Origin: Rhizodiscina lignyota | Lineage: Eukaryota | Length of the DNA stretch: 37,081 bases | Direction of reading: 5' to 3' | NCBI GenBank assembly: GCA_010015805.1 | Contig: ML978136.1 | Location: forward strand, 682,001 to 719,081 | Part shown: one piece after another, positions 18,117-37,006 of the stretch | How the letters are laid out: every line of letters starts with the position of its first letter | Numbering within the stretch: position 1 is the stretch's first letter | Translations under genes and position numbers: made by a program | Notes under the pieces: generated by a model | Told to the model about the DNA's origin: nothing | The model's input: the letters and a program-made list of their open reading frames with translations, nothing else | The model's database searches: none

Positions 18117-20758
18117 TTTGAAGGCCTGCGCGTTGAAAGATGGGAAATTTCCGAACCTCGTGCTGGTGCTTGAGGTCTTCGCCGGGAACTCGAGTGCTGT
18201 TGCTCCACGAAGTGATAGAAGTAACGGACAGCTTTGAGGGCGAAAAGCGGGTTAGTGGGGGGTGTTGAGAACAGATTGGCGGGATACACAGATATCGCAG
18301 GGAAGCGTGTTGAGCATTGATGCCAATAGGTTGCGCTATGTGGTATTGTCCACCCCCAAGTTGAACTGTTGTTACAGAGAGCCCCTCTTTCCGGTCACAC
18401 AAACCACCCACAAACTGCCAAAAATATACCAAAATTTTGATGTTTGATCGTTGCGGCCTATTTGAGTCGATACGTCTCGATAAACTTCGTCAGCAGTTTG
18501 ATGACGAGGCTTTACTAATATCGTATGCGCTTCTGAAGAGTGCATGAGGCTCCCTGCGCTAGATGGTGACTCCAAACTCGAAAGCTACGCACGCCGGTAG
18601 GGGCACAACAACGACGATATGGTAGCGAGAATTGCTGAGGAGAGATTTGAAAGATTTAGAGAAAAGCGAGACGCGAAACCCAGGGTTGATGTGAGCACCG
18701 TCGCCACTGAGGGTAGAAACTTGGATGGAATGTCGGTCACCCTCCTTCTTGCGCACCCCGCTCTAGCGTAGATCTTAACGACGACAGCGATCCTCAGGCG
18801 ATCATCTTCCTTTGCCACGCAGATGAGTATAGTTGCTCTGGATAGAGATTGAATTGCTTAATTGCGATGTGACAGGGTGGTGGAGGTCGGCAAATCGGAC
18901 GAACTGCCGAAGGAGATCCACTTTAAATCTCGACGCGACGACGACCCCTTTCCTGCCATTATCCATCAAAGATACCACCACAATTAATGAAACGGCTCCC
19001 TGGTGCTCCTGCTGGATGTTACGTTGTTCAAGCTGCACTCTCGCTGAAGCTGTAGCGTAAAAAGAGCTTGGAATTAGAAAGCAAACGGAGTGTCTGATTC
19101 CCTCAACGACCACCGGCCGCTGGACGGAATCCGCCTGTTGTCAACTGTACGGCTCTACGAGCACCTGCTGGTGTGTGGCTTAAAGCTACACGATCTAAAG
19201 CGCGACGACTTTGAAGCGTCGATTATACTCTGAGCGGAATCTCCACGAGTCTTAGAACTTAGACATTCGAGCATTAATAGCGCAGCAGGCAGAATATCCA
19301 CATCACCGATCTGACAGGCTTGCGAGCATTCCCTATACTCTGGACGGAGTTTCAAAGGCCTTGGATGTACACCTGTTTGAGCATCAATTGCAAAGTAGAC
19401 GGAATTCAGACGACCTGGAGTTTCACGGCTTCTGAACATCGATCTAAGGCCGACCGGAATCCCCGAGGCATGAAAGATATAGGAACTATAGCCAGCACCG
19501 GACCGGATGAATCTGTATAGGCCGAACCCTGATGACGCATGAGCATCTATGCAAGGCGAAATATAATCTCCAAACCGCAATAGCATTACGACTACGGCTC
19601 TAATACGAGGCTAAATGGAACCTGCCGAAACGCAAGGCCCATGACTTCCGAGCATCAATGACAGATTGGATCAGATCTCCAGGCCATTAAGTGCACAGGA
19701 GTTGCAGCACCGATGCTACTATGAGCAGAATTCGCACAGCCACAAGATTCATGGCTTCTGAGCCCCAGCGCGAAGCCGAATGGAATCTCCAAACCTCCAA
19801 GCGTACAGGGCTTCAGGTATCGATATCAGCATCAACAGAATCCCATTTGCGCCAAGTTTAGCGGCCTCAAAGCTTCAATAGCAAGCTCGATAGGATGTAC
19901 ACACCCTGAAGCACACAGATCGTCGAGCGTCAGTGGCACCCTCAGCGGAACATCCAGCTCTCCAGATGCACAGGCAATCCAGCAACAACAGAAGAGGAAG
20001 TGGCATCCTTAATGCCTTGATTCCTATTGTTTCCTAGCATCTATTGTCTCAGGGCATGCCGTTGTACATCCGCATTTCCCATGCCGTTCGAGCATCGAGC
20101 ACAACCCTAGTCGTATCCATTCAAACCCAGTTACCCTGATATTATATCATCAAACTTACGTTGCATAGACCATCTTCGATCCCAAGTATAGCAGAAGTCC
20201 AAACAAGGGCATATTAATGCCAGCGTGCTTCAAGGACTCTGGCGACAATGTTGAAACATATATTCGCCGACGAATTCGTATCAGTAAATGAAAGAATGAC
20301 TTTGCAAATGCGGAATGAGGAACAGGTAAACGAAAGGACAGACAAAATGCTTACAAAGTTGTAGGAGAAACTGTCTCACGGCTTGAAAACGTTCATGAAG
20401 ACAAGACATACGCAAGATTGTATGGAAAACTGTCTCGCAGGCTGTCTGAATGGCCTGCGATGTGACATACATATTGCGACACACAAATTTATATGAGAAA
20501 TCATGTTGAGTCACATTTCAAAGCATTTTGTGCACGTTTTTTTTGTCATTGATTTCCTGTATTTGAGTCTATCTACGAGACTCATGTCTCGTCGTGGAAA
20601 TTCTGGTATTGTACATGCAATTGCCCACCATGGGCACATTGATTCGTGAGTCATCAGCAAAAATGTAAGACATCAGCAAAAACAGCGCAGGTTAGCTAGC
20701 CATGCAGTGCAGAAAAAGAAAGAGAAGGGGAAAAGGAAAGAAGAGAGAGCGGTGTTCG

Positions 20759-22439
20759 CTAGAAGTTGAAGCGGGCCAGCAAGCGATCCAGCAGGTCGTC
20801 GTCCATCTGGGCGCGGGCGACCAGGTCGCGCAACCTGTGCATGCGCTCGGCGCGGGTTGGGGGACGCGAGGAGCCAGCAGGGTGGCCGAGGTCGTACATG
20901 TCGTTGTGCGGGCGTGCTCCGATCGGACGGGCGCGCGGGTACAAGCCCTCGGTCTGCGCGCGCTGCATGCTGCGCTGGTGACGGGACTCGTTGTTTGGTG
21001 GCGGGAATTGGCATTCCTGGCCCGCGATCTCTGGGCCGTCCAGGTAGGTGAAGAATAGCTGTGCACTGGGATTAACTGAAGCAATAGTTCGAAAAAGATT
21101 GAATGAAGGGGAAGCTTACGTGTGGGCGATGGGCAGGGTGCTCGTCCATGATGGCACTGTTGCGGAAGTGCTCGACAAGACTCTCCTGTCCCTGGAGAGT
21201 GGCGTAGGACATCTGGAGGACCTTGTGTCCAGGGAAGCCGGGCATTGGCTGGCCCTGCCAGCCGCGCAGGAAGCTCATCATGTCTTCTGGCGAGGCGAAG
21301 TCGATGAAGGCGTAGCCGACATTGTTGCCAGTCCTGAAGTCCGTGCGGAGATAGACGAAAGAGAAGCGGCCGAAGCTGGACGTGCGCAGCAAGCCCAAAA
21401 CATGCTCAAGTGTGGCATTGTTGGGGATGTTGCGGAGCATGACCGTGGTGCGGACGTCTTGACCACTCACGATCGCCGGCAGATAGATGCTGTTGCTGGC
21501 GTTTGCAGCCCGGTTGTTTCGGCCGTAGCCACGGCTTGACTGGACGAATGAGGTGCGAGTTGGCGTGCTTGGCAACGAGCTGAAGTGTGAAGGGCGTGTT
21601 GGTGTCTGCGGGAACGAGGCGCGGGCCGGCGAGCCGGAGCCGGAGCCAGAGCCAGGGCGGACGTTGAGGGGATCGTTCATGTCCGCGATGCGGATTCCGG
21701 CGTGATTCTCATGGAAGTCCCTCCTGAGCTGAGCAATCATGGTTGGAGTTGGGATGGCGTCGTCGAGATTGGCAACGACCATGCCTGGGGGAGAAGCCCT
21801 GGAGCTTGATGCGACAGCCGCGGCAGTGGAGCTTGGTCCAGCTGCAGTGCTGGGGCGCGAATTGGCAATGTCGTCGTCCTGCTGAGCTGGGCTCGGATCG
21901 GCGACGAAGAACCAAGAAGGATCCGGGCCATGGAAGCGAGGAAGCATCACTTCCGGCTGGTCGGGAAGAAGGCAGGCCTTGTAAGAGCGCATGAAGTTGA
22001 CGGCAGCGTCCTTGTTCGGGAAGACCAGCTTGGTGACATAGATGCCATCTTTCTCGCAAAGATAGCGGTGATGGACTTCTGGATCATGGTGGTACCGCAA
22101 GATACCGTTGTCGAAGAGCGGGGTGGGCATGATGGTCTTGTTGACGTATTCGAAGACGAGAGTCTTGGACATGACATGATGGTGGTAGCGGACCTGGTCG
22201 CGCCAGTCTCCAGGCTTGCGGAGCTCCCTGGCTGCGTCGCCTTGGAGCTGAGAAGCGTAGGGAGGATGGCCGACTTTGTAGTACGCCGCGCCAAGGAACT
22301 GGTTGAATGCAAGGGGCTCGATGATCGCACCCTCTTCGTCGCCGTCAGTGAAGGTGACTGCGACGGTGAGGCATCCGGTGTCGGGAGAAGCATAGGTGGT
22401 GAACGCATCGGCGGCGTTGGGAACGAAGCGGTAAGCCAT
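20759..22439 (-). CDS. Mei2-like RNA-binding protein with C-terminal RRM3 (RRM_2 type); exons 22439-21120 and 21058-20759, about 539 aa
   Basis: DVRTTVMLRNIPN, FVYLRTDFRTGNNVGYAFIDF, SYATLQGQESLVEHFRNSAIM and spliced RPH|LFFT..AGQECQFPPPNN..RSMQRAQTEGLY are the Mei2 RRM3 plus fungal C-terminal extension; GTAAGC..CAG intron. Confidence 0.88.
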
Positions 22440-22690
22440 GTCGACAGAAGATGCTGAGGAGCAAAGTACGGTGCAAGAAGTGGATGGCGACTGCATTGTC
22501 CAAACAGACCGTCAGTAAGCAAGAACAAGAAGATGCCCAAGACTCAAGAGGTAAATGCAAGAGTGATGGAGGCAAAAGATGTTGCAGGCCAAATTGGAGT
22601 AAGTGAAATGAAGAGAGGAAGAGACGGAAGGGAGTGTGGTGGGTTGAAATAGAAAGAAGAAGAGCAAGGTTAAGTGATGTGTGAGTGGTA

Positions 22691-22964
22691 GACGACATTT
22701 AAAAGAGAAGGGACAAGTGAGGAGTGGGTCATGGATGTGGGCCATGGATGATGCAAGACATGGAATAGGGAAGGGATGAACATGGTGTGGCGAGGCAAGA
22801 TATTGAAGACGGAAGGGCCAAGTGATGGACGACATGGTGAAGGGAAGGGGCAAGTGCGGGGCGACATGGAAAGAGGAGGGGCCTACAGGGGTGTGCATGG
22901 ATGATGTTCAAGAGGGAAGGTACAAGAGGAGTGCGACGGCAATGGAAAGAGGGAAGGGACGACA
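22691..22964. repeat. Degenerate tandem array, about 7 copies of an approx. 30-bp purine-rich unit (consensus about GACGACATGGAAAGAGGGAAGGGRCAAGTG on +)
   Basis: Copies start near 22691, 22754, 22796, 22828, 22860, 22900, 22935, aligned by eye. Confidence 0.6.
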
Positions 22965-23150
22965 ATGGGAGACTGCAGCGACGAAGAAAGAAATGACGAA
23001 CCTCGATAGCAAGTTCAGGTCGTGGCTTAAAGCTGCGCAGCGAAGATGCTTGGTGGAGAAGCTGATAGTGCGTAAAAGAGCAAGGGTAAGCGATTGCTGT
23101 TTTAGGTACTGACGAAGAAGAGAAGGAACGAGGGTTCGAAAGACGAGCGA

Positions 23151-23160
23151 AATATATATA
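23151..23160 (-). promoter_or_regulatory. Candidate TATA box for the Mei2-like gene
   Basis: TATATATATT on the minus strand, followed by a long CT-rich leader running to the ATG. Confidence 0.4.
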
Positions 23161-24259
23161 CTCTTGCACCGACAGGGGTCGTCTCCGCATCGTCCAGGAT
23201 CCCGGGGCTATTCGCGACCAAAATCGTACCATATGGAACCAGCCTAGCCCAGAACGAGATGATGTGGGCCCGTTGAATATGGTATGAACTTTGTTCAGAC
23301 TTGCTTGGAGTCGCTGGAGTGGACAGCGACGGTCTGCCTCACGACTCTTCCCTCGCGGTATTCCACCACACCACGCAACAACCGCAACGTCTTTTTTTGT
23401 GTACTCGACGGGGACAGCTTTATAAAGGTCTGGGAGTTTTTCTACTATTTATTTTCTCTATACAATGGTTGTGGATGGTTATGGCAGGGTGGTGGTTTTG
23501 ACGCTGGCAGACAACTTGGAACTTCATTTGGCGTCTTCTTCAGATCGTCTTGAGAACCACGCTAGATCTGCAACGCTAATGCAAGGTACACGCCACTAGT
23601 ATACCCTGCTGGCTTTCGGTCCAATTTCCCATTCCCAGAAATTTCACGTCCTTGTGCAAATGAGCAGAATGCTGCAGAACGCATCCGATTTACCAGACGG
23701 TAGAACGTAGCTGGCCATTCCAATTGTCCTGCGCCAAAATTGGCATTGGTTAAAATGCAATTGCGTGTAAATATCAAGCCTTTCATCTCTTTTCGGCGTC
23801 GTCCTGCCATGAAATGGGATTGGAAGTGTGGTGACAGGGATTATGCAATGTGCTCTTAGCGTGCAGGCACCGTTGGCGCATGCGGTTATGCACGTCACCT
23901 GCTCGGCGAGATCCGAGCCGCCGCTTGCACCCCTGTCGGTGGAGGCTCTCGCAAACGTTATTGCAACTTCAAGATAGCAGCGACATCAAAGTTCGCATTT
24001 GACGTCCACCCTCTCAATAAAGACTCTCCCATTTGTTGGTGTCGAGCTTCTACATGCTTGTCTCATACCCACGACGTTGAGCACATCCCAATTACCCTTT
24101 TCTACATCGACCTATCGCCACTCGAACAAGAACCGCGATTTCAAAAGTAAAGTGAGCACTGCGAGCGATCCCAGAGACCCGGTCCAGAGCACCCGTCCCC
24201 TGTACGATCGCCCGGTACTGGTGTCTGTGGCGCTTTTAGCGTCCCAACAACTGGTCACG

Positions 24260-27059
24260 ATGCCTTACGCAATTGACCCGCCGGACGAACTGGCGAATGC
24301 CGTCCAGCAGGTATTGAAGGCCGTGTCGAACGGGCATTAGACAAGGTGCTGACATTTGGAACTAGATTGCCCTGACATCCTCAGATGCGGACTACATCGA
24401 TCAGCTCGTGCCCGTTTTGCGCGATGTCAGGCGTTCTGACCGCGCAAACAGGCTGGTCCAGAGCCTCGATGCCCTCGCTGCTAGACGTGAGGCAGAGATT
24501 GAGAAGATGTGCAATTCAAACCACCAAGAGTTCGTGTCCAGTGTGAATGCATTACTGAGAGTCAGGGAGGGCACGGTAGAGCTCACCTCCGATATTCTCA
24601 ACCTGAACCAAAGTATCCAGGCCAGTACGGAGAAGCTCGCTGAGCAGAAGAAGGCCCTCGTAGAGTCGCGCGGTGTGAGACAGAATATCGATGAGGCCAA
24701 TCGTGCGCTGGAGTCCTGCCTTGAGGTGCTGAGACTCGCCAATCAAGTTCATGACCTGCTGGCCAAGAAGAAGCACTACGCAGCTCTGCGAGCGCTGGAC
24801 GAATTGCAAAATGTCCATTTGAGGGAGGTAGCACGCTACAAGATTGCTGATATTATTGAAAAGTCCGTCCCTGCTACTCAGAAAATGATTGGCGATGCTG
24901 TCATGGCGGACCTCAATACCTGGTTGTACCGCATTCGTGAAGCGTCACAGTACTTGGGAGAAGTGGCTTTCTATCACACGGATATGCGCCGCACGCGTCT
25001 CAAAGAGCGAATGGACAAAGACTCCAATATGACAAAATTCAGGCTCAATTCTGCCATTGACCTTGTTGCCGACGAGGCCGACGAGTTCGACATCCTCAAC
25101 AACGAAGAGACGGAAACACAGGTCGATTTCTCGCCCCTCTTTGAATGCATCCACATTCACGAGACGCTTGGCCAGATCGATAGGTTTCGCCACGAGTACG
25201 CCGCCACGCGCAAGTCGCAGAAGGACCTCGTTATCCCTGACTCCGTGAGATTACTGGATGAAGACGAAGCCGACCTGAGCAGCTTGCTTGAGAGTATTGC
25301 GGGTTTCGCGATTGTGGAGAAAGCAACGATGAGGAAGATGCATAACTTCCGTGCGCCTGCAGATGTATGTTGCACCATACTCTCACCCATCCGAACACTA
25401 TTTAGATTCCCCTTCAGCAATTAACTTGAGTGACTCGGACAGGTCGACGAGTTGTGGCAATCCATGTGCCAGAGGACAATCACACTTATAACCAAAGCTT
25501 TACCGGCAGTCAATGATGACGAGAAGTTACTCAAGATCAAGAGCCGTATCGCCTTGTTCATTCAAACGATGGACGTAAGTTGCGCTCTTTCCCACTCTCT
25601 TTATCTCGGGCACTAATAGAGCGATTCAGAGTTGGGGATACAATGTCGCGTCTCTCAACGCCCTTTTGCTTAAGATATTCGACAAGTATGCTCAATTGCT
25701 CAAACAACGGTTCAGCGAGGACTTTCAAGAGGTAAGGCATATGCATGATGCCTATAATATGACTCGGCTGATCCGTACCAGATTGTCTCAACCGACGATT
25801 ACATGCCCATGCCGATCAACTCTATCGATGAGTACGACAAGGTGGTCAATGTGTCGTGGTACACGCCGGAAAAGTCGCGTGAGGAATTAGAGTGCGTTCG
25901 AAGCTTTCCCCTTATGGCTCTCCCCCCTTTCACTCCTCTGATTCCTAGCTCTCGAATTACTCTATTTTCTTCACTTCTAGGAATATTTTTAAAGCATACA
26001 ACCAACAAAAACCATCACCATACAGATTCCCCTGCGTCCTCCCTTTCAGCCAGATGTATCCGCTTTGCTGTATCGACATCCGGAACTTCCTCAACCAGAT
26101 CTACCTCTTCTCCGATGAGCACTTCCAGCGCTCTGCCATCATTGACGACACCCTGCGCGACTCGCTCGACGAACTCTTGTCCGAGAAAGTATGCCAGTCT
26201 CTGGTCGATCGCCTCTCGAGTCAGTACCCCGGCCAAATCGTGCAGATTCTCACAAACTTGGGCCACTTCGAGATTGCGTGCTCGGAGCTGCAGAGCTTGC
26301 TGTACGAAGCAAGGAGCAATAAGAGTGGAGGTAGTGCCGAAATTGAGTTGCATGCAACGGAGAAGTTTAAGGAGGGGAAGAAGATGGCTGAGAAACGTAT
26401 CTTCGAATTGGTTAACAGCAAGATTGACGATTTGATTGAGATTGCGGAATACGACTGGTATGTACTAGTCTTTTCATTATTGTGGCGCTTGTTTGAAGCG
26501 CATTTCGGATGCCATGAAGATGGTGGAGAGCATAGTGCTGACGAGAGACGACAGGACCGCGTCAACGCCTCTCACTGTCCCATCGAATTACATACAAGAG
26601 CTGACACAATACCTGTCCGTCAATATGGACTCTGTCCTCCTCGGTCTGCCCACCGAGATTAAAGAACTGGTCTACTTTGACGCCCTCTCTCATGCCGCTA
26701 CTATGATCCTTGCCCTGCCTCTCGACCTTAACGTCAAGTCAATCTCCGCCGCCGCAGTCAAGACCCTCTCCAACGACGTTCAGCATCTTAGTCAATTTGT
26801 CGAAAGTCTGGGTAATCCGATCCTCGACGAGAATCTCGACGAATTGAGACAGACAGTCATGCTGATGGGCAGCGAGAATGCGGAGGAGGAGTTCTTCGAT
26901 GTCGCACAGAGGAACAGGAAGTTTGGCAAGGTGGATAATATGAATGGTGCAGTGCTCTTGGAAAAGGTTCAGCAGGGCGCAGCGGTTCCGGTCCAGAGCC
27001 CGACGCGCACGGCGGATAGGTTCGCGAATATCGGCTCAAGATTTGGTCTAAACCGGTAG
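24260..27059 (+). CDS. SEC15: Exocyst complex component Sec15; exons approx. 24260-24310, 24366-25364, 25443-25574, 25630-25731, 25782-25891, 26026-26457, 26555-27059
   Basis: EIEKMCNSNHQEFVSSV, LNTWLYRIRE, VDFSPLFECIHIH, IAGFAIVE, DDYMPMPI, FPCVLPFSQMYPLCCIDIRNF, QIVQILTNLGHFE, FELVNSKIDDL; six canonical introns. Confidence 0.96.
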
Positions 27060-36986: not shown

Positions 36987-37006
36987 GAGAGAGAGAGAGA
37001 GAGAGA
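36987..37006. repeat. (GA)10 microsatellite
   Basis: Ten perfect GA units. Confidence 0.9.

Follow-up and report, generated by a model that had tools for sequence, protein, structure and literature searches.

The closest systems to the one analyzed here, a polypyrimidine tract that precedes a Mei2-like gene in a contig of the dothideomycete Rhizodiscina lignyota, have been described in other fungi. In Aspergillus, plus-strand polypyrimidine tracts (PPPTs) lie near regulatory genes with large upstream regions, genes for RNA-binding proteins included; replication slippage is a likely partial source of these tracts, and the best cases are defined by positional conservation across orthologs (Noble and Andrianopoulos 2013, PMC3730340). 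The xylP core promoter consists of a TATA box, a pyrimidine-rich block and a start site (PMC9703631). Budding yeast makes long undecoded transcript isoforms (LUTIs), of which 64 of 74 have between 4 and 17 upstream ATGs (PMC8153250), and Schizosaccharomyces pombe mei2 is among the regulators whose long 5' untranslated regions (UTRs) are loaded with scanning ribosomal subunits (PMC9825154). We analyzed a window of 37,081 bases (the whole stretch of DNA under study), in which the mRNA strand of the Mei2-like gene is the minus strand. The tract resolves into a degenerate, ATG-bearing unit of about 32 nt, and if transcribed from a distal TATA box it would form a leader crowded with upstream open reading frames (uORFs).

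The tract and its TATA box

The minus-strand open reading frame (ORF) below the tract is 99% identical to the 539-residue R. lignyota protein NA57DRAFT_61227, and the ATG at 22439 is the start of that annotated protein. The following features lie 5' of it.

22470-23094, minus strand: coding-strand polypyrimidine tract (73% C+T); no other in the window is as long at a threshold of at least 70% pyrimidine per 150-nt window
23105-23150, minus strand: pyrimidine-rich block abutting the 3' side of the TATA box, with a 15-nt pure pyrimidine run (23128-23114) inside it and a putative distal start site near its 3' end
23151-23160, minus strand: TATA box, which on the mRNA strand reads TATATATATT; it lies 712-721 nt 5' of the annotated ATG

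The tract is the longest and most strand-biased pyrimidine tract in the 37-kb window. Between 22440 and 23160 the minus strand (721 nt) holds 267 C, 251 T, 115 A and 88 G, which is 72% C+T, and the skews of the tract reach 0.72 for GC and 0.50 for AT. Over the same interval, 30-bp windows (step 15) with a CT fraction above 0.75 number 20 of 47 on the coding strand; the opposite strand has 0, and the runner-up 700-nt bin has 6. Composition, skews and window counts thus bear out the extreme strand asymmetry that an earlier reading of the letters without database searches (the sequence-only reading) had described. Upstream of 8 other genes in the window, each with an approximate start codon set at the earliest in-frame ATG of its ORF, the pyrimidine fraction is at most 0.66 and the enrichment is confined to the first 150-300 nt.

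All sequence features named by the sequence-only reading were located where it had placed them. Its TATA-like element is present at the 5' edge of the tract. The core of this element, TATATATA at 23153-23160, occurs nowhere else on either strand of the 37,081 bases, and 100 shuffles average 0.11 matches.

These properties fit the coding-strand polypyrimidine tracts known from the upstream regions of fungal regulatory genes. Like the Aspergillus PPPTs, the R. lignyota tract is CT-rich, lies on the coding strand and is gene-proximal, less than 2 kb from the ATG, and its 20 of 47 windows were counted under the 30-bp CT >0.75 criterion applied to PPPTs (PMC3730340). Its gene encodes an RRM_2 protein and has a 1.8-kb upstream region, which we take to be large.

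The decayed repeat and its upstream ATGs

Within the tract we mapped a repeat array and a set of upstream ATGs with their uORFs.

22681-22972, minus strand: degenerate head-to-tail array with consensus CCCTTCCCTTTTCCATGTCGTCCATCACT, made of a partial unit and units U1-U7
22598-22634, minus strand: weak eighth copy of the unit, without ATG, found by alignment; a resemblance only
22724-22750, minus strand: 13-nt tandem duplication inside U6 (period 13, 2.1 copies, 92% matches), found by Tandem Repeats Finder (TRF)
22696-22898, minus strand: eight upstream ATGs, at 22898, 22867, 22835, 22783, 22761, 22745, 22732 and 22698
22512-22898, minus strand: 128-codon uORF sharing the frame of the main ORF; further ATGs of that frame lie at 22835 and 22745
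22670-22867, minus strand: 65-codon uORF whose internal in-frame ATGs lie at 22783 and 22732
22761 to 22729, minus strand: uORF of 10 codons
22345-22698, minus strand: 117-codon uORF that extends past the main ATG in another frame

The seven units start at 22958, 22920, 22881, 22850, 22817, 22775 and 22712 on the minus strand and are 31-63 nt each, with the partial unit (22959-22972) at the 5' end of the array. All copies have the same orientation, and the unit follows a pattern of about 32 nt, CCCTTCCCT..CCATGTCGTC..CACTTG. The sequence-only reading had proposed that the repeat be set against shuffled sequence and be given up if it did not stand out. It does stand out. When 20-nt windows with at least 15 self-matches were counted against dinucleotide-preserving shuffles, the interval 22660-22990 gave 95 such windows vs 3.3 +/- 3.9 in shuffles (maximum 26; 0/300 reach the observed count), and 22440-23160 gave 103 vs 7.4 (again 0/300). 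The most frequent lag between self-matches is 32. A 19-nt core, searched with up to 3 mismatches, has 5 matches in 37 kb, all of them within the array, a result that 0/100 shuffles reproduce.

The array is irregular yet significant. A repeat-family search recovered 4-5 copies at spacings of 63, 42, 32, 32 and 72 nt, with 64-84% identity to the reference copies, so that only two successive spacings equal 32 nt. TRF, which had been suggested as a further check, did not call the array as a tandem repeat of about 30 nt: at a minimum score of 30 it found no period near 30, only the 13-nt duplication at 22724-22750 and an 8-nt duplication at 22610-22634. The earlier description of about seven degenerate copies of about 30 bp therefore stands for the copies, seven of them clear and one weak, and not for a regular tandem arrangement, the unit varying from 31 to 63 nt. 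The array is a decayed repeat rather than a regular minisatellite. The nested 13-nt tandem duplication in U6 is a sign of recent and ongoing slippage. In our best explanation, a coding-strand polypyrimidine tract was lengthened by repeated duplication of the unit of about 32 nt, through slippage or unequal exchange, and the copies have diverged since.

The ATGs follow from the repeat. At least eight minus-strand ATGs had been claimed for 22690-22900, and we count exactly 8 vs 3.42 in shuffles (1/1000 reach this number), a 2.3-fold enrichment. Seven of the eight stand in the context CCATG, where 1.16 would be expected (0/1000 shuffles), and the ATG excess is therefore a property of the repeated unit: the array ATGs are passengers of its CCATG. 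In the two most 5' units CCATTG replaces CCATG, and the 13-nt duplication in U6 made the ATGs at 22745 and 22732. A ninth minus-strand ATG, at 22496, is in frame with the main ORF. Taken over the whole upstream region, 9 ATGs in 700 nt is no more than ordinary DNA contains; for the 8 other genes in the window, the upstream number ranges from 4 to 17.

The eight array ATGs cover all three frames, and the uORFs 22698-22345, 22867-22670 and 22898-22512 that had been read from the sequence are all found as described. Only the ATGs at 22835 and 22783 have an A at -3, and they open uORFs of 107 and 37 codons. The lengths of the uORFs are themselves uninformative: the longest has 128 codons, shuffles average 111 and 347/1000 of them reach 128, because CT-rich sequence offers few stop codons. 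The frame of this longest uORF is parted from the main ORF by a lone TGA at 22512-22514, inside a branch-like TACTGAC. Their shared phase is probably a one-in-three coincidence, and although readthrough or a small intron at this TGA would yield an N-terminal extension, that arrangement is probably due to chance. The packing of ATGs as a by-product of a repeat, and the long uORFs as a product of composition, both caution against over-reading similar tracts.

A proposed distal start and its alternatives

Our best reading of the sequence, held tentatively, is that the TATA box at 23151-23160 drives a transcript with a leader of about 670 nt that carries upstream AUGs (uAUGs). If the TATA box serves the Mei2-like gene, then the start would lie near 23100 and the array would be transcribed; a start near 23100 is plausible in view of the unique TATA box and the adjoining pyrimidine block. 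The TATA box, which is about 250 nt 5' of the first array ATG, would fire a start some 30-60 nt downstream, and the array would then sit in an unstructured, CU-rich leader. On balance we lean, by a little, toward transcription of the array from a distal site, whether or not it is later spliced. Folding of the leader RNA revealed no structure beyond that of shuffles (z = +1.02; 17/20 shuffles fold at least as well).

In such a transcript the eight uAUGs would open uORFs in three frames, and the 117-codon uORF would cross the main AUG. Given the uAUGs, the A at -3 of two of them and the overlapping uORF, few ribosomes would be expected to arrive at the start codon of the Mei2-like ORF. Decoding of the long isoform would thus be poor, and the protein might come from a short isoform with a proximal start, or from leaky scanning combined with reinitiation. 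The leader would, in other words, be uORF-throttled and LUTI-like.

Several points weigh against this reading. A leader of 670 nt is long for a fungus, and true leaders are usually purged of ATGs, whereas the array ATGs exceed what composition predicts 2.3-fold. ATGs that have not been purged and that occur at an ordinary density (9 in 700 nt) fit untranscribed promoter DNA. Closer to the gene, a TATA-like TTTAAATG with one mismatch (22703-22696) is followed by a CT block, and as the true core promoter it could give an ordinary leader of about 200 nt. Since TATATATA is its own reverse complement, it could also serve an oppositely directed transcript. The public protein model, which begins at 22439, is uninformative on the UTR.

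The alternatives draw in part on signals near the coding region and on the opposite strand.

22491-22515, minus strand: branch-like TACTGAC (22515-22509) and acceptor CAG (22493-22491)
22881-22886, minus strand: best candidate donor, GTAGGC; hypothetical, and with the acceptor at 22491 it would bound a 396-nt intron
20711-20749, minus strand: uninterrupted pyrimidines over 39 nt of the presumed 3' UTR, 10 nt past the stop codon; no pure purine or pyrimidine run elsewhere in the window is as long
22835-22891, plus strand: template-strand G-runs; G4Hunter maximum 1.76, the highest positive value in the window

It is a serious possibility that transcription starts at about 22660-22550, in the proximal CT block downstream of the array, which would then be untranscribed promoter DNA with irrelevant ATGs; the array could act as a promoter-opening polypyrimidine tract, as repeated sites for some factor, or as both. 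The unpurged array ATGs and an overall ATG density equal to that of generic upstream DNA are consistent with this. The 250 nt before the start codon hold 1 ATG, in frame with the main ORF, but the shortage is not significant against the 1.88 expected. TTTAAATG at 22703-22696 is followed by pure pyrimidine runs of 15 and 14 nt, Aspergillus has pyrimidine enrichment just 5' of its start sites (PMC9703631), and the duplicated 91-bp element of xylP offers a case of repeated upstream sequence with promoter function (PMC9703631). A proximal start would, however, leave the sole canonical TATA box in 37 kb without a role, 450-600 nt above the start site, and comparison of the unit by eye with fungal motifs (STRE, CreA, BrlA, AbaA/TEC1, Ste12 PRE, HMG/TR-box and MSE) gave no convincing repeated match that would point to a known factor. 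Splicing offers a further alternative: a TATA-driven transcript could lose the array with an intron ending at the CAG at 22491, leaving a mature leader that is short and nearly ATG-free, while retention would give the uORF-laden form. We consider this unlikely. The branch and acceptor that the sequence-only reading placed just upstream of the coding ATG do exist, with a near-consensus TACTGAC 19 nt 5' of the CAG; the pair is weak when taken alone, because ACTRAC-N8-30-YAG occurs 12 times in the window (both strands), and the full loose intron pattern occurs 90 times. An intron ending here would explain why the annotated start is the second in-frame ATG, the first (22496) lying inside ...ATGCAG, and candidate first exons 5' of 22923 are free of ATGs. 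A splice model built from the window itself (668 candidates in 97 groups) produced no donor-hexamer consensus and was dropped in favor of Fusarium frequencies, where the 5' splice site reads G100 T99 A74 A42 G93 T66 over 2022 introns (PMC5677156). The donors named earlier, GTACCT near 23109 and 22923, are present and do not have G at +5, a base conserved in 93% of Fusarium introns; a further candidate, GTTCGT at 23001, has no purine at +3 (PMC5677156). GTAGGC at 22886 has the +5 G, like the gene's own GTAAGC, and fits the Fusarium site save at +6; about 0.65 matches to GT[AG]NG[TC] are expected in the tract by chance (arithmetic from composition). The candidate intron 22886-22491 would drop seven of the eight array ATGs together with ATG 22496, and would leave 22898 in frame with the main ORF, thereby making it the start, which the public model does not use. 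The implied lengths of 396-619 nt (433-619 with the GTACCT donors, an extreme for fungal introns) also compare poorly with a Fusarium median of 57 and maximum of 529, even if first introns there are the longest and reach 529 nt (PMC5677156).

Further proposals concern what the array might bind, encode or fold into. An autoregulatory platform, in which the RNA recognition motif (RRM) of the protein would control translation or splicing by binding the CU-rich array, with the 39-nt 3' UTR run perhaps as a second site, is in our view highly unlikely. RRM3 of S. pombe Mei2 binds UUC(U) (PMC9486875), and its structure 6yyl matches residues 315-482 of the Mei2-like protein (E 1.8e-37), which makes the two domains homologous; moreover, the most pyrimidine-rich stretches of the window lie at both ends of the presumed mRNA. 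The RNA-contact residues are R631, F644, N680, I681 and K690 (PMC9486875; numbering counted along the 6yyl-aligned chain). R631 and F644 are retained, but the other three are changed (N680 to T, I681 to L, K690 to H). The motifs themselves occur at the level set by composition, with UUC found 35 times vs 35.5 expected (304/500 shuffles reach this) and UUCU 13 times vs 12.4 (238/500). The suggestion that the protein regulates itself through its own pyrimidine array therefore gains nothing from motif counts and meets a binding surface with only 2/5 contact residues identical; UUC is, in addition, too short to single out the leader RNA, and transcription of the array has to be presumed. That the array is coding, as an N-terminal extension or as a separate small protein, is extremely improbable. 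The frame from ATG 22898 has the phase of the main ORF, with the TGA at 22512-22514 as the only break, but such placement has a one-in-three chance, the frame is absent from the public model, ORFs of this length are normal for the composition (347/1000 shuffles), neither long frame contains a Pfam family, and the unit lengths, 31, 32, 33 and 38 nt among them, are not consistently multiples of three. The plus-strand G-runs at 22842-22891, earlier thought capable of G-quadruplex (G4) or triplex formation, are present and contain no canonical G4 motif: four runs of three or more G gave no match with loops of up to 7 or up to 12 nt, and a 16-nt loop would be needed. Nor is the G4Hunter value of 1.76 unique, because 11 listed stretches of the window (a few of them overlapping) reach an absolute value of 1.5. 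For the triplex idea, the longest pure pyrimidine run inside the tract is 16 nt.

Returning to the uORF-laden leader transcribed from the distal TATA box, one could go further and imagine the array as an evolvable translational rheostat. Each 32-nt unit added by slippage would add a uAUG, and the degree to which the TATA-driven long isoform escapes decoding would depend on array length; production of the Mei2-like protein would require a developmental proximal start or splicing to 22491, and a UUC-binding RRM might feed back through the array and the 39-nt run. We regard this extension as quite unlikely.

The gene, its neighborhood and known systems

The Mei2-like gene is organized as follows.

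20759-22439, minus strand: Mei2-like coding region with a single RRM_2; exon 1 at 22439-21120, exon 2 at 21058-20762, stop codon at 20761-20759
21119-21059, minus strand: intron of 61 nt, GTAAGC...ACAG, from the sequence and the annotated protein

Both flanks of the coding region are CU-rich on the mRNA strand. The sole Pfam domain is RRM_2 (PF04059; E 3.1e-21, 75.8 bits, cut-off 25), and a Pfam search for further RRMs in this protein and 5 fungal relatives gave one RRM each and none beyond. S. pombe Mei2 has three RRMs. Residues 1-200 (21840-22439, minus strand) match no Pfam family and no sequence relative, and an atlas search yields weak RRM-like leads at a score of 0.82, which is chance level; this part may be a degenerate RRM or a lineage-specific domain. 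The scoring of 8000 candidates yielded 70 homologs. The gene's own product, at 99%, is the single close one among them; the others show 30-51% identity and cover no more than 53% of the query, within the RRM region. Matches in 26 metagenome loci (contigs of 1.0-1.7 kb) are confined to query residues 286-434, and the relatives P0016 and P0007 likewise align in the RRM region only. Among all of these, the N-terminal 300 residues have no detectable relative. The name given to the gene by the sequence-only reading is thus apt for a Mei2-type C-terminal RRM, which both Pfam and 6yyl support, and not for the rest of the protein; judged by sequence comparison, 'Mei2-like' holds for the RNA-binding domain only. 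Because there is a single RRM, and because relatives leave the N-terminal 300 residues unmatched, a role as a meiotic switch is an assumption.

Upstream lies a divergent Sec15 gene, whose ATG we place at 24261, with 1.8 kb between the Sec15 and Mei2-like start codons. In the model suggested by the sequence and by a Pfam-positive ORF that starts at 24366, Sec15 would begin with a short first exon followed by a candidate intron with donor GTATTG (without +5 G), branch GCTGAC and acceptor TAG (24261-24365 in all, plus strand). A second TATA-like element, TTTATAAAGG, is found at 23415-23425 (plus strand), in the middle of the divergent intergenic region. The interval 23200-23980 contains no ORF of a Pfam family, no Rfam match and no tRNA. 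The Rfam scan found nothing in the tract and one sub-threshold match at 23982-24006 (14.4 bits vs a gathering threshold of 221, E = 1), and the tRNA scan found none. At the right end of the window there is a (GA)10 microsatellite (36987-37006).

If the array is transcribed, the locus would be a clear natural case of repeat expansion building a multi-uORF leader before an RNA-binding gene of developmental type, in a filamentous fungus. Two subjects usually treated apart would also be joined, the unexplained polypyrimidine tracts of fungal regulators and control by uORFs or LUTIs. If the array is untranscribed, it is another polypyrimidine promoter tract.

Relative to S. pombe Mei2, the R. lignyota protein has one RRM instead of three, an unmatched N-terminal 300 residues and differences at 3/5 contacts. 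What the two share is a homologous C-terminal RRM in a regulator-type gene, possibly with a long leader, and the available portion of the account of the S. pombe mei2 leader makes no statement of a repeat array (PMC9825154). As in xylP, the TATA box is followed directly by a pyrimidine-rich block; the block of xylP is 19 nt, whereas the bias in R. lignyota extends over about 600 nt and the start site here is our inference (PMC9703631). Should the distal start be used, the 5'-extended leader with its 8 upstream ATGs would resemble the yeast LUTIs, which are defined by two promoters, toggling between them and poor translation (PMC8153250). The tract fits the Aspergillus PPPTs, from which it differs by its dothideomycete host and by resolving into a unit of about 32 nt with CCATG instead of plain low complexity (PMC3730340). 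What the locus adds to this known type of tract is a resolvable repeat unit, one that happens to carry an ATG.

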